Shown: positions 47,323 through 55,564, counted from the first letter of the stretch. The stretch is DNA of 64,000 nucleotides from an uncultured Acidobacteriota bacterium (GCA_964524795.1 CAZGEH010000003.1:78675-142674), one strand, 5' to 3'. Numbers and translations: made by a program. The notes: generated from the letters alone by a model not told the origin.

Positions 47323-49815
47323 ATGGCGGCGTTACCGCGAGGGTGCCGAGGTTGGGTGGTCCTGGCAGGGTCCGTTCTGGGTCTGGCCGTGGGGCCGTCC
47401 TGCGGAGGAGGGGGAGCAGGGGAACCGGCGGCGGTCCGCCTGGTTGACGTGTTTCCGTCCGCCACCGTCGAGGGAACTCCGGTGGATGTAACAGAACCCG
47501 ATCCCCTCGACTGGTGGAAGTTTGCCGAACCTCCGCCGAATACGATCGCCGCGGAGAGCCGTGCCACCTGGGGTTGGAAAGCATACGACGCCGTCTCCGG
47601 CCTGAAGCTCCGAGACGGACGGCTCACCGGTCGTACCAGCGGAGCCCTGCCGGTCCTGGCGGCCTCCCGCTTCACCAGCCTGGACGAGAGCGATCTGCTG
47701 CACGCGGTAGAGATCCGCATGCGGGTCAGTGCCGGCACCACCGTGACCATGGCAGCCTGGGGCGAAGCCGAACTCAAGACCCCCGAGCTGATCGGAATGC
47801 TCCGCGGAGCCCCGTTCCGCCTCCAGAGCCCGATCCTGCCGGGCGACGAGTTCCACACCTACACCCTGCAGCCCCCAATAGCCCAACCGCTCGCCCAGAT
47901 GAAGCACCTGATCGTCGTGCCCACCGACGCCGCCGGTGCGGATTTCGAGATCGACTCGATCCGGGTCATCTCCCGCCGGGAGCATCTGGCCAGAATCCCC
48001 TCGGGAGTCGGTTGGCAGGGCCTGTCCGAGATCTACCGGGAGACGGTCGTCGCCCGTTCCCCCGAGGTGATTCACCTGCCGCTGGAAGTTCCTCATGAGG
48101 CCTGGCTCGAACTCCATGTGGGAACCATCGAGCACGACCCGGTTACCTTCAGGGTGGGGGTCTCCGCCGGCGGTGAGGAGACTCCGCTGCTGGTGCGAAC
48201 GGTCACGGTCGCGCACCGGTGGGAGACGGTTCCCCTTGATCTTGCCGCCTATGGAGGCCGGAACGTGACCTTGAACCTGGGACTGGCAGCGGACGACCCC
48301 GGCAAGGTCGGCTTCTGGGGTGGAGTCACTTTGCGTCGGCGCGCCCCCGCGAGCCCGGTTGCCACTGACCGGAAGGCCGTATCCGTCTTGGGTGAAGCCG
48401 CCGGCCGGCCGCCTCAGGGTGTGATCCTGGTCGTGGCCGACACACTGCGCCGGGATCATCTGAATTTCCATGGCTACAGCCGCGAAACCGCCCCCTTCCT
48501 GGCGCAGCTTGCCGCTTCCGGGACGCTGTTCGAGGACAATATCGCACAGGCCACGTGGACTAAAGTCTCTGTCCCCTCCATGTTGACCTCCCTCTACCCG
48601 ACATCGAATCGCATCCACGACATTCCGGACCGACTCTCGGCGCAGGCCACCACCCTGGCAGAGATCTTCCGAGAAGCGGGATACGCGACCGTTGCCTATT
48701 CCTCGGTGCCCTTCACCGGCAAACTGACCAACCTGCATCAGGGATTCGAAGAGCTGCACGAGGTGACTTCGGTGCGCGCCGGGGAATCGCGCGAAAGCAA
48801 GACGGCCCGGGAGTATGTGGACCGCCTGACCCGCTGGCTCGAACTGCACGGCCGGGGACCGTTCTTTGTCTTTCTTCACGTCTTTGACCCCCACGATCCG
48901 TACGAACCCTTCCAGCCATACAACTCGCTTTGGGCCGATCTTTCCCGCAAGCCGGAACACGAACAGCAGCTCGAGACGGTTCGCAAGTTCATTGAAGACC
49001 CGTTGCTCAAGCGTTTCGGAATGCCCAGCCGCGAGGAATTCAGGGCGGCCGGCGTCGACGGGGACGCTTTCGTCGCTTACGACAAGGACTGGTACGACGG
49101 CTCGATCCGGGGAATGGACCGCGAAATTGCGCGGCTGGTGGAGCGACTGGGACAACTGGGCCTAAAACACCGTACGCTGCTGGTCTTTACCAGCGACCAT
49201 GGCGAGGAGTTTCTTGAACACGGTCGGACCTTCCACGGGCAGAATCTGTACGGAGAGCTGACCAACGTTCCCCTGTTTTTCCACTGGGAGGGTGTCGTTC
49301 CCGCCAACCTGCAGATCCAGAAAACCGTGCAGAACGTCGACATCATGCCGACGGTGCTGGCGCTGAGCCATTTGCCTGTCCCATCCGGGATTGCCGGACA
49401 GGACCTGCTGCCCCTGATGGCCTCGAAACAGCCAGGCGGCTCGTCGGCATCTCTCTCGGCGTCAGCCGCGGAACTCCGGCCGGCGATCTCCGAACGGCTG
49501 GAAACCCGGGCGCTTGCGGGGCCTCCGCCGCGGGGAACCGCCTCGGTGGCGCTCGTGCTGGACGGCTGGAAATTGATACACAACTACCAGCGTGTGGAGG
49601 GGCAACCGGAGTACGAGCTATACCGGCACCGCGAGGACCCGCTCAATTTCAACAATGTCGCCGCGGACAATCCCGAGGTAGTCTCCCGACTGGCCTCCGC
49701 GCTGGAAAAGTGGCGGGAGGCGGCCCTGGCGGCCCAGCTTCCCGAGGCGGACTCCACGGAAGGCCTCAGCCGCGAAGAACTGGAGCGCCTCAGAAGCCTG
49801 GGCTATGTCCAATAG
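47323..49815 (+). CDS. Sulfatase-like hydrolase/transferase (alkaline-phosphatase superfamily) with about 340-aa N-terminal domain of unknown function; lipoprotein
   Basis: Start MAALPRGCRGWVVLAGSVLGLAVGPSCGG (lipobox). The C-terminal half carries the sulfatase fold (VILVVADTLRRDHLNFHGY...FVFLHVFDPHDPY...FTSDHGE), but the formylglycine motif C/S-x-P-x-R is replaced by T-W-T-K-V-S-V-P-S-M. Confidence 0.65.
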   Translation: MAALPRGCRGWVVLAGSVLGLAVGPSCGGGGAGEPAAVRLVDVFPSATVEGTPVDVTEPDPLDWWKFAEPPPNTIAAESRATWGWKAYDAVSGLKLRDGRLTGRTSGALPVLAASRFTSLDESDLLHAVEIRMRVSAGTTVTMAAWGEAELKTPELIGMLRGAPFRLQSPILPGDEFHTYTLQPPIAQPLAQMKHLIVVPTDAAGADFEIDSIRVISRREHLARIPSGVGWQGLSEIYRETVVARSPEVIHLPLEVPHEAWLELHVGTIEHDPVTFRVGVSAGGEETPLLVRTVTVAHRWETVPLDLAAYGGRNVTLNLGLAADDPGKVGFWGGVTLRRRAPASPVATDRKAVSVLGEAAGRPPQGVILVVADTLRRDHLNFHGYSRETAPFLAQLAASGTLFEDNIAQATWTKVSVPSMLTSLYPTSNRIHDIPDRLSAQATTLAEIFREAGYATVAYSSVPFTGKLTNLHQGFEELHEVTSVRAGESRESKTAREYVDRLTRWLELHGRGPFFVFLHVFDPHDPYEPFQPYNSLWADLSRKPEHEQQLETVRKFIEDPLLKRFGMPSREEFRAAGVDGDAFVAYDKDWYDGSIRGMDREIARLVERLGQLGLKHRTLLVFTSDHGEEFLEHGRTFHGQNLYGELTNVPLFFHWEGVVPANLQIQKTVQNVDIMPTVLALSHLPVPSGIAGQDLLPLMASKQPGGSSASLSASAAELRPAISERLETRALAGPPPRGTASVALVLDGWKLIHNYQRVEGQPEYELYRHREDPLNFNNVAADNPEVVSRLASALEKWREAALAAQLPEADSTEGLSREELERLRSLGYVQ

Positions 49816-54952: not shown

Positions 54953-55564
54953 ATGCGTTGGCTGAGATCGATCCGTTACCGGTGGATGCAACCTGTCACC
55001 GTCGTCTCGGGACTGCCCCGGTCAGGTACCTCCATGACAGTCAAGATGCTGGAGGCGGGGGGGCTCCCCGTTTACACCGACCGGGCACGCCGTCCGGATA
55101 TCGACAACCCGGGTGGGTACTACGAGTTCGAAAGGGTGAAGCGCCTGGCGGAAGAGACAGACAAACACTGGGTCGCCGAGTGCCGGGGCAAGGTGCTGAA
55201 GGTTATCTCCTTCCTGCTGCCCGATCTGCCCTCTGAACTGGCTTACCGGGTGGTGTTCATGTCGCGGGATCTGGACGAGGTGGTGGCGTCCCAGAACAAG
55301 ATGCTGCAACGGCGGGGCGAGCCGTTGCAGGATGATGGGGTGGTCAGGCGCATGTTCGAGGACCATCTGCTGCGAATCGGCCGCTGGATCGCGCAGCAAC
55401 CGAATTTCCGGCTGCTGGAGGTGCCGTATGCGGAGGTGGTGCGGTCGCCCGAGCTCCAGGCCCGCCGCATTCGCGATTTCCTGGGCGACCCTCGGCTGGA
55501 TGTCCTGAAGATGGCGGAGGTGGTGAATCCGGAGCTGTACCGCAACCGCTCGGCAAGCATCTGA
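54953..55564 (+). CDS. Sulfotransferase-family protein (PAPS-dependent)
   Basis: VVSGLPRSGTSM is the 5'-PSB P-loop of sulfotransferases (PKSGTTW-like), and RVVFMSRD is 3'-PB-like. 203 aa. Confidence 0.6.
   Translation: MRWLRSIRYRWMQPVTVVSGLPRSGTSMTVKMLEAGGLPVYTDRARRPDIDNPGGYYEFERVKRLAEETDKHWVAECRGKVLKVISFLLPDLPSELAYRVVFMSRDLDEVVASQNKMLQRRGEPLQDDGVVRRMFEDHLLRIGRWIAQQPNFRLLEVPYAEVVRSPELQARRIRDFLGDPRLDVLKMAEVVNPELYRNRSASI

Follow-up and report, generated by a model that had tools for sequence, protein, structure and literature searches.

The DNA analysed here is a stretch of 64,000 nt from the genome of an uncultured Acidobacteriota bacterium (GCA_964524795.1 CAZGEH010000003.1:78675-142674), which is called the window in the following. 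Between positions 47,323 and 55,564 it contains an operon of six genes, which encode a sulfatase-like lipoprotein (Sulf), two paralogous phosphodiesterases of the NPP type (NPP1 and NPP2), a small protein of 63 aa, a membrane protein (Mem), and a sulfotransferase (ST). The reading put forward is that the operon is one copy of a widespread module, which works at and across the inner membrane, is tied to sulfation with 3′-phosphoadenosine 5′-phosphosulfate (PAPS), and follows the mechanism proposed in the Discussion. This reading is tentative, and our confidence in it stays just short of an even chance. The function of the module would be the PAPS-dependent modification of a membrane-associated envelope substrate, and the two NPP-like enzymes are predicted to sit on opposite faces of the inner membrane. 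Each component belongs to a known superfamily.

Results

The Module Is Conserved in Many Phyla and Linked to Sulfate Activation

A sequence-only reading of the window had proposed that the six genes form a single operon and a functional unit, and the conservation of the gene order was surveyed in other genomes. Mem was found in 21 of 41 searched genomes, i.e., the genome of the window and 40 relatives of the same order. The order NPP1-NPP2-small protein-Mem recurred in 12 loci of the same-order relatives, usually with the ST gene following, and no other flanking gene was conserved in these loci. A pattern search with the small protein retrieved at least 519 species genomes that encode relatives of it, and the best 80 loci were used for a wide synteny survey. 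They belonged to Acidobacteriota, Gemmatimonadota, Eisenbacteria, Entotheonella, Myxococcota, Methylomirabilota, Planctomycetota, Verrucomicrobia, Fibrobacteraceae, Thermodesulfobacteriota, and Gammaproteobacteria. The four-gene order was kept throughout the 80 loci, with the exception of losses at contig ends and of a few loci with a single NPP gene, in which the remaining gene is NPP1-like. With 12 same-order relatives and 80 loci from many phyla keeping the gene order, the synteny extends far beyond relatedness, and the proposal of a single unit was borne out. The ST gene was found in three kinds of placement: downstream on the same strand, as in the window, upstream on the same strand, and, most commonly, upstream in divergent orientation.

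Gene contents were counted in the 41 loci with full flanks of 8 kb. Mem was present in 40 of them and ST was encoded within 8 kb in 36. A PAPS synthase composed of PUA_2, ATP-sulfurylase, and adenosine 5′-phosphosulfate (APS) kinase domains was found in 10 loci, and a CysQ-like Inositol_P protein in five. The link of the module to sulfate activation is systematic. A sulfatase-like neighbour was found in 14 of the 41 loci, and in five of these cases it had the N-terminal domain that is described below for Sulf. The sulfatase-like gene is thus an accessory, occasional neighbour and does not belong to the core. Three enzymes of the alkaline phosphatase superfamily plus a sulfotransferase had been regarded as the unit; the families were confirmed, but Sulf had to be removed from the core.

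In five loci (L046, L051, L059, L085, and L098) ST is missing. Their upstream part instead encodes an APS kinase along with two additional NPP paralogues, which are shorter and cytoplasmic. The operon of L046, which stems from a metagenome-assembled genome of Eisenbacteria, has the order Sat-NPPx-CysC(tail)-NPPy-NPP1-NPP2-RHH-Mem. Its first part (L046:5-3749) starts with the gene for an ATP sulfurylase, which is followed by those for an NPP-like cytoplasmic protein of 457 aa, for an APS kinase to which a Leu-Gly-Tyr (LGY) tail is appended, and for another short NPP-like protein. A variant module was observed as a second copy in two relatives (L024:503-10750 and L025). It comprises, in this order, Mem, an FG-GAP/ASPIC-UnbV protein, a TPR protein, NPP1, NPP2, the small protein with the tail GLGYLE, and an alpha/beta-hydrolase, and no ST adjoins it.

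A Small, Highly Conserved Protein Is Predicted to Bind NPP1

The small protein had a mean column identity of 72% across phyla, compared with 45-50% for the enzymes. The residues G24, Y25, E30, H34, and G58-L59-G60-Y61 are invariant, as is a GYSS loop, and K5 and K7 in a putative beta-strand are conserved. It has neither an export signal nor a leader peptide. The protein had been described as similar to ribbon-helix-helix (RHH) proteins, and a weak match to an RHH antitoxin family was indeed obtained (E 0.038, 15.3 bits, cut-off 28.3). Weak matches of the RHH type were also observed among 62 members of the small-protein family (PSK_trans_fac in 42, RHH_1 in 24), a few members matched antitoxin families of the FitA or VapB type, and the annotation of the Joint Genome Institute (JGI) is CopG/Arc/MetJ. 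A comparison of the family profile with the PDB yielded nothing significant. Inspection by eye of 28 intergenic regions between divergent ST and NPP1 genes revealed no operator that all of them share, a formal motif search not being included, and several of these regions contain a −10-like GGTA(C/G)ACTA.

The C-terminal tail of the small protein, RLKGLGYIS, recurs on Sulf and on stand-alone APS kinases of related loci. In the whole genome only the reading frames of the small protein and of Sulf end with L-x-x-L-G-Y-[IV]-x. The LGY tail is kept in all homologues of both proteins, and its Tyr is invariant. In Sulf the residues L826, G827, and Y828 are at least 90% conserved, and the tail was modelled as a helix (residues 817-826) with a predicted local distance difference test (pLDDT) value of about 73-75. 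In the stand-alone APS kinases of the five loci with additional NPP paralogues, the native end is extended by an appended EEEEKIKQRLKDLGYI tail. Bifunctional PAPS synthases were considered as further bearers of the tail and were rejected, the motif probably being the native C-terminus of their APS kinase and varying between copies. The genome encodes three proteins in which a sulfatase-like domain of the Thr type is combined with TPR (C9:3488-5608, minus strand; C7:55337-57298, plus strand; C6:66415-68571, minus strand), and an internal ...ERL(R/A)(S/A)LGYV..., which is the motif of the two tails in the operon, lies between the two domains of these proteins.

For a complex of NPP1 (residues 88-712) with the small protein an ipSAE of 0.69 was predicted, in contrast to 0.00 for the best of three controls. 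Of 80 solved complexes 58 attained this mark, as did two of 110 mismatched pairs, own alignments having been used, so that the counts are rough. At least 92% of the contacts were common to the prediction runs, and the pLDDT of the partner was at least 77. On the side of the small protein, the predicted interface contains residues 23-27 with the GYSS loop, E30, H34, and the tail, of which residues 52-63 are all included. On the side of NPP1 it contains T149, F161, H457 (a metal ligand), and W657, which lie beside the active site, and additionally S205, N409, G617-P618-Y619, and P701, which are invariant in NPP1 and not in NPP2. The small protein is therefore modelled as docking on NPP1 with its GYSS loop and LGY tail and as covering the mouth of the active site. 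The RHH-like character that had been claimed for it has the weak family match on its side, but the small protein looks more like a dedicated partner of NPP1 than like a plain regulator. Cleft residues common to both NPPs would allow NPP2 to take the Sulf tail in the periplasm.

The Two NPPs Have Different Anchors

NPP1 and NPP2 matched the family Phosphodiest (PF01663) with 99 and 108 bits, respectively (cut-off 23), and are 39% identical to each other. In both NPP families the ligands of the two metals and the Ser nucleophile (D101, S140, D453, H457, D511, H512, D660, and H661) show a conservation of at least 95%. Because all catalytic residues are kept in both families, NPP1 and NPP2 are probably active enzymes. 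The NPP core is split by an insertion of ~270 residues. A search of the ESM Atlas with the NPP1 insertion returned only the same uncharacterised phosphodiesterase families. The PDB search with the single NPP1 sequence gave no match, and the search with the NPP profile gave weak partial matches only.

It had been claimed that the two proteins are membrane-anchored paralogues similar to type I phosphodiesterases. The family and the paralogy hold, but the anchors are not equivalent. The N-terminus of NPP1 homologues consists of a signal-like segment ending with A-x-A, the motif Y-[IV]-G-P-G-A-G, a hydrophobic helix with W-P-[FI]-R at its end, and, ahead of the catalytic domain, a strongly basic segment of Arg and Lys residues. 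Y42 and G44-G48 are invariant in 63 sequences, and the YxGPGAG motif is unique to NPP1 in the genome. Following the positive-inside rule, the catalytic domain of NPP1 is predicted to be cytoplasmic, and a hairpin or a cleaved, procoat-like anchor would keep it at the membrane. NPP2 of the operon has a plain N-terminal signal peptide that lacks a lipobox-like Cys, and such a Cys was present in 12 of the 21 NPP2 homologues that were read. NPP2 would thus be exported and act in the periplasm.

A third NPP paralogue of the genome, which is 36% identical to NPP1, is encoded at G000:C1:682903-684795 (locus L107:7892-10066, minus strand). It lies in a same-strand run with a DUF92 and CTP_transf_1 membrane protein and a UbiA prenyltransferase. 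These neighbours hint at a lipid substrate for the NPP subfamily.

Mem Is Related to the DUF106 Branch of the Oxa1 Superfamily

Mem had been recognised as a membrane protein of 279 aa. This was confirmed with three transmembrane (TM) helices, and its identity could be refined. The first scan gave no match of Mem itself to a Pfam or NCBIfam family. The profile of the Mem family matched the archaeal DUF106 protein MJ0480 (5c8j) in the PDB with E 3e-9 and 39.8 bits over the profile positions 9-120. An AlphaFold2 (AF2) model derived from an alignment of 73 homologues had a pLDDT of 94.8. Its N-terminal helix is followed by TM1 (32-54), by a helical hairpin that continues as a long TM2 (57-124), by a beta-sandwich (135-254), and by TM3 (256-271). 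The coiled coil of the hairpin would be cytoplasmic, and the Ig-like sandwich, which is inserted between TM2 and TM3, would be periplasmic.

The model was compared with 48,161 PDB representatives. The top match was a 177-residue chain of a multipass translocon (7tut) with Z 12.1 and a root-mean-square deviation of 3.3 Å over 131 aligned residues, and the next match had Z 8.2. From its size we take this chain to be TMCO1, the tool giving only the title of the entry. Foldseek returned only Ig-like domains for the model, with E about 4e-3. PF01956 was the top weak Pfam family, which was matched by 14 of 73 Mem relatives with a best E of 4.4e-4. The gathering score of PF01956 was not reached, and Mem of the window had no match to this family. 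A search with a protein language model led to a cluster that is partly annotated as EMC3_TMCO1 (score 0.86), which is regarded as a lead only. The Mem family has 3,617 representatives of clusters at 50% identity at E ≤ 1e-3. Judged from its profile, Mem is a homologue of archaeal DUF106/Ylp1 and thereby of the Oxa1/EMC3/TMCO1 superfamily. Anghel et al. (2017, PMC5868721) assign DUF106 to the Oxa1 superfamily and describe it as a family of archaea and eukaryotes. The hairpin anchor of NPP1 would be the kind of client that is handled by insertases of the Oxa1 type.

Sulf Has a Thr in Place of the Formylglycine Motif

Residues 367-681 of Sulf matched the Pfam family Sulfatase (PF00884) with E 3.5e-44 and 151.8 bits, compared with a cut-off of 25. 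The Cys27 of its lipobox is at least 90% conserved among homologues. Because of this conservation Sulf is regarded as a lipoprotein that starts with the ATG at 47,323, in agreement with the previous description as a sulfatase-like lipoprotein. In the public gene call the protein has 788 aa, starts with V43, and loses the signal peptide. Sulf would be exported and act in the periplasm. The AF2 model (pLDDT 89.2) has an all-beta N-domain (residues 37-340), for which no family match was found, a catalytic domain with the sulfatase fold, and a terminal helix of moderate confidence, which bears the LGY tail. A Foldseek search with this model yielded S1 sulfatases (E about 1e-22), the sulfatase domain filling the list of matches. 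At least 1,497 homologues were found, which are named merely "sulfatase" or "hypothetical".

The formylglycine motif C/S-x-P-x-R is not found in Sulf, which has the sequence TWTKVSVPSM with a Thr at the position of the nucleophile. W412-T413-K414 are invariant in 57 homologues. The region 339-424 matches models of phosphoethanolamine transferases and the catalytic domain of MCR-1. Similarity to S1 sulfatases and to phosphonate monoester hydrolases was seen for the remaining part of the domain and for the overall fold. The earlier proposal of a Thr-type chemistry as in LtaS and EptA thus gained ground, and a putative Thr nucleophile of the EptA/LtaS kind, not of the formylglycine type, is supported for Sulf.

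ST and the Supply of PAPS

ST matched the family Sulfotransfer_3 with 46.9 bits (cut-off 27). The residues P22-R23-S24-G25-T26-S27 of the 5′-phosphosulfate-binding (5′-PSB) loop and R105 and S113 of the 3′-phosphate-binding (3′-PB) site are invariant in 40 sequences, in line with the assignment as a sulfotransferase of the PAPS type. With Sulfatase, Phosphodiest, and Sulfotransfer_3 all of the enzyme families that had been named from the sequence were retrieved in the Pfam and NCBIfam searches. No export signal was found in ST, and the protein is read as a cytoplasmic PAPS-dependent sulfotransferase. The PDB search with the single ST sequence gave no match. The search with the profile gave weak and generic matches to cytosolic sulfotransferases and, over the PAPS loop only, to protein-tyrosine sulfotransferases (E about 1e-3).

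The only PAPS synthase of the genome, again with the domains PUA_2, ATP-sulfurylase, and APS-kinase, is encoded at G000:C1:471725-473473 (L108:5726-7474, minus strand), so that the host is able to make PAPS. The gene adjoins a gene for a Polysacc_synt (Wzx-like) flippase, a possible sign of a sulfated polysaccharide that is encoded elsewhere in this genome.

Layout of the Operon and Its Genomic Setting

The positions of the genes and of further features are compiled in Table 1. The six co-directional genes were reproduced exactly, and so were the overlaps (4-11 nt) and gaps (6-14 nt) that had been reported between them: the five junctions from Sulf to ST are −11, −4, +14, −4, and +6 nt. The window has a G+C content of 62-69% and is part of the contig C3 of a 4.45 Mb genome, which is 99.75% complete. 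The nearest named homologues of the operon proteins are from Acidobacteriota. For a stretch of 9 kb no RNA run is listed, and it was present in only four DNA metagenome runs, two from freshwater, which are possible sources, and two with small shares. The hosts of the module are oligotrophs from freshwater and soil.

Table 1. Features of the window, with positions counted from its first nucleotide.
Feature	Position	Strand	Length or remark
Sulf, sulfatase-like lipoprotein	47323-49815	+	830 aa
NPP1	49805-51943	+	712 aa
NPP2	51940-53904	+	654 aa
Small protein	53919-54110	+	63 aa
Mem, membrane protein	54107-54946	+	279 aa
ST, sulfotransferase	54953-55564	+	203 aa
LGY tail of Sulf, residues 817-830	49771-49812	+	ends with EELERLRSLGYVQ
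LGY tail of the small protein, residues 50-63	54066-54107	+	EEEIKKRLRGLGYIS
YxGPGAG motif of NPP1, Y42-G48	49928-49948	+	predicted periplasmic edge of the anchor
Nested inverted repeats I1-I6 and tandem pair	47077-47227	.	between upstream gene and promoter
Repeat unit	47088-47171		stretch with copies of the 18-nt unit ACNCGGATCCCGCGGATG
Candidate sigma70-like promoter	47240-47269	+	TTGACT-18-GATACT; consensus match; sole site upstream of the operon
Thiolase-like protein	40602-41978	-	upstream of the operon
Double-rhodanese protein	41845-42714	-	upstream of the operon
GH129 glycoside hydrolase	43079-45586		upstream of the operon
Open reading frame	55344-56264	-
Open reading frame	55984-56679	-
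Open reading frame	57421-57987	+
Open reading frame	57512-58300	+
GH9 and CelD_N cellulase-like gene	58734-61544		downstream of the operon
Largest open reading frame of the window	11870-16981	-	1,703 aa

A promoter-like region with a large palindrome had been noted upstream of the operon. The palindrome is real, but it is not specific for the operon. Tandem and inverted copies of its repeat unit (ACNCGGATCCCGCGGATG) occur in many intergenic regions of the genome, and the core of the inner repeat unit, GATCNCGCGGAT, has 94 genome-wide matches. Because the unit is dispersed across the genome, the palindrome is a member of a dispersed repeat family that resembles repetitive extragenic palindromic (REP) elements, and its role as an operon-specific operator was ruled out. 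The candidate promoter is at chance level, one sigma70-like site having been found upstream of the operon compared with 1.2 expected by chance.

The genes for the glycoside hydrolase GH129 and the GH9 cellulase-like protein, which flank the operon in the window, are not kept beside the module in other genomes. The ~3 kb downstream of the operon (55,565-58,733) contain four open reading frames without Pfam match. No link to the module was seen for the double-rhodanese and thiolase-like genes. Rfam and tRNA scans of the window gave no match.

Discussion

The proposed mechanism combines these components as follows. ST would use PAPS to sulfate a membrane-associated acceptor, which could be a lipid or a lipid-linked precursor of the envelope. 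The phosphodiester or phosphoanhydride head groups of this acceptor would be processed by NPP1 on the cytoplasmic face and by NPP2, in some cases jointly with Sulf, on the periplasmic face. Mem might insert or hold the anchor of NPP1, or it might open a route across the bilayer for polar head groups. The LGY tail would be a docking or gating peptide that brings partners to NPP-type clefts, and these partners would be the small protein in the cytoplasm, Sulf in the periplasm, and an APS kinase in some genomes.

Several points weigh against this proposal. ST is missing from five of the 41 fully flanked loci. The tail-like C-terminus of the bifunctional PAPS synthases is probably native and not appended. 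The complex of the small protein with NPP1 is modelled rather than measured, and the link to lipids is based on the neighbours of one NPP paralogue. Furthermore, helical folds with three TM segments easily give middling Z-scores, and the assignment of Mem to DUF106 therefore rests mainly on the sequence-profile match.

Alternative explanations were also considered. One of them is a remodelling of the membrane that spares phosphate: the NPPs and Sulf would strip phosphate-containing head groups from the lipids of both leaflets and thereby recover phosphate, ST would make a sulfated, phosphorus-free lipid as a replacement, and the small protein would be a regulator of the operon. The alkaline phosphatase superfamily is typical of phosphate-starvation regulons, and three of its members are encoded in the operon. 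The exchange of phospholipids for sulfolipids is a known strategy, and NPP paralogues facing two leaflets, the linked genes for PAPS supply, the lipid-gene context of the third NPP paralogue, and the oligotrophic hosts from freshwater and soil would all fit. However, neither a Pho-type regulatory signal nor a phosphate transporter was seen in the loci, the known bacterial sulfolipid substitution uses UDP-sulfoquinovose instead of PAPS, and the tails on the periplasmic Sulf and on the APS kinase would be left unexplained. On balance we consider this explanation unlikely. The same tails are central to a different idea, according to which ST sulfates the Tyr of the LGY tail and the NPPs read or remove this mark, which would control DNA binding or the recruitment of enzymes. 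It draws on the invariance of the Tyr throughout, on the PRSGT 5′-PSB loop of ST, the best weak PDB matches of which are in part protein-tyrosine sulfotransferases, and on the position of the tail beside active-site residues in the predicted NPP1 interface. Known sites of tyrosine sulfation have acidic surroundings, however, while the Tyr of the tail is surrounded by basic residues. In addition, the tail of Sulf would be periplasmic and ST cytoplasmic, the matches to tyrosine sulfotransferases are confined to the generic PAPS loop (E about 1e-3), and in five full loci tails occur without an ST in the vicinity. A tyrosine-sulfation switch thus appears quite improbable.

Two further explanations concern the small protein. 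It could be an ordinary RHH autorepressor, in which case the contact with NPP1 would be an artefact of modelling and the likeness of the tails would reflect a common structural element. The RHH matches are weak but consistent (PSK_trans_fac and RHH_1 in 42 and 24 of 62 members), K5 and K7 are conserved, the JGI annotation points in the same direction, and an LGY-type motif also follows the sulfatase-like domain in the three sulfatase-TPR proteins. The far higher column identity compared with the enzymes would be unusual for an autorepressor, since the operator would need equal fixity, and no shared operator was seen by eye in the 28 intergenic regions. Also the gap between the score of the complex and those of the controls, as well as an interface made of invariants of the small-protein family and of NPP1-specific invariants, argue against this explanation, and it is doubtful that the small protein is a mere autorepressor. 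Alternatively, NPP1 could be a harmful cytoplasmic phosphodiesterase that is plugged by an antitoxin-like RHH tail, as in toxin-antitoxin or defence systems. An RHH domain with a partner-binding C-terminal tail is an antitoxin-like architecture, the best weak families are antitoxins of the VapB/FitA type, and the predicted binding covers the mouth of the active site. Nevertheless, PADLOC, the library of which contains systems up to 2023 only, gave no match for the six proteins, and the module is chromosomal, has a stable order across phyla, is embedded together with biosynthetic PAPS genes, and has exported components. This last explanation is very improbable.

The proposal of a membrane-bound, PAPS-linked module can be extended to a relay of sulfation across the envelope. 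Activated sulfate of the cytoplasm would be transferred to a lipid carrier by ST, or by NPP-type enzymes fed by a tail-docked APS kinase, would pass the bilayer with the aid of Mem, and would be used by NPP2 and Sulf to sulfate periplasmic components of the envelope. The LGY tail would then represent a new class of docking or pseudo-substrate peptides, which would serve NPP clefts in the cytoplasm as well as in the periplasm. This extension is speculative, and we think it improbable that it is correct in this form; if true, it would be a periplasmic sulfation pathway without a known bacterial precedent.

The public names of the module proteins are generic. Searches of the accessible literature for the gene combination, the LGY motif, and a bacterial DUF106 family found no description, and the earlier statement that no characterised pathway combines a sulfotransferase with a sulfatase-like and two NPP-like enzymes is in accordance with this result. 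The module occurs commonly in Acidobacteriota, Gemmatimonadota, and many further environmental phyla that have been little studied, as is also indicated by the at least 519 species genomes with relatives of the small protein. With Mem, bacteria would possess a homologue of DUF106/EMC3/TMCO1, whose family has been described from archaea and eukaryotes, and the operon context offers a candidate client or partner for it, i.e., the procoat-like anchor of NPP1. A short C-terminal motif seems to address different enzymes to NPP-type proteins, and the module would connect the cell envelope with PAPS-dependent sulfation, a process that is rare among bacteria and little understood there.

Comparison With Known Systems

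With EptA/MCR-1, LtaS, and OpgB, which are PF00884 proteins with a Thr nucleophile, Sulf shares the Thr413 in a T-x-x-S-V-P-S-M context and the predicted export. In contrast to the EptA/LtaS-type enzymes it lacks the N-terminal domain with multiple TM helices and is instead a lipoprotein with an all-beta N-domain of ~300 residues and an LGY tail, and it scores 51 bits compared with a family cut-off of 500. It has the PF00884 domain and the fold in common with the S1 formylglycine sulfatases, from which it differs by the Thr in place of C/S-x-P-x-R. The NPPs of the operon keep the domain of the NPP enzymes (PF01663) and PhnA with scores above the cut-off, the metal ligands, and the Ser nucleophile. 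Their core is split, however, and one of the two paralogues is predicted to be cytoplasmic and tethered to the membrane and to have a dedicated small protein partner.

The small protein is reminiscent of RHH antitoxins of type II systems (VapB/FitA/ParD-like), which it resembles in its size, a putative N-terminal RHH, and a tail predicted to bind the active site of a neighbouring enzyme. In contrast to these systems, the NPP-like partner does not belong to a known toxin family, the genes are part of a conserved metabolic module, and the small protein is far more conserved. In comparison to RaxST/RaxX and the eukaryotic TPST, ST is also of the Sulfotransfer_3 type with a PRSGT loop and has a small protein with an invariant Tyr nearby; on the other hand, this Tyr lies in a basic context, a leader peptide is missing from the small protein, and no secretion or processing transporter of the RaxST/RaxX kind was found in the window or in the 80 loci. 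The similarity of Mem to the Oxa1 superfamily and DUF106 consists in its profile homology to MJ0480, and Mem fits the description of the superfamily given by Anghel et al. (2017; PMC5868721). Unlike DUF106/Ylp1 and EMC3/TMCO1/GET1, Mem is bacterial and has an Ig-like periplasmic insert between TM2 and TM3, and its gene lies inside an enzyme operon and is not that of a general housekeeping factor.

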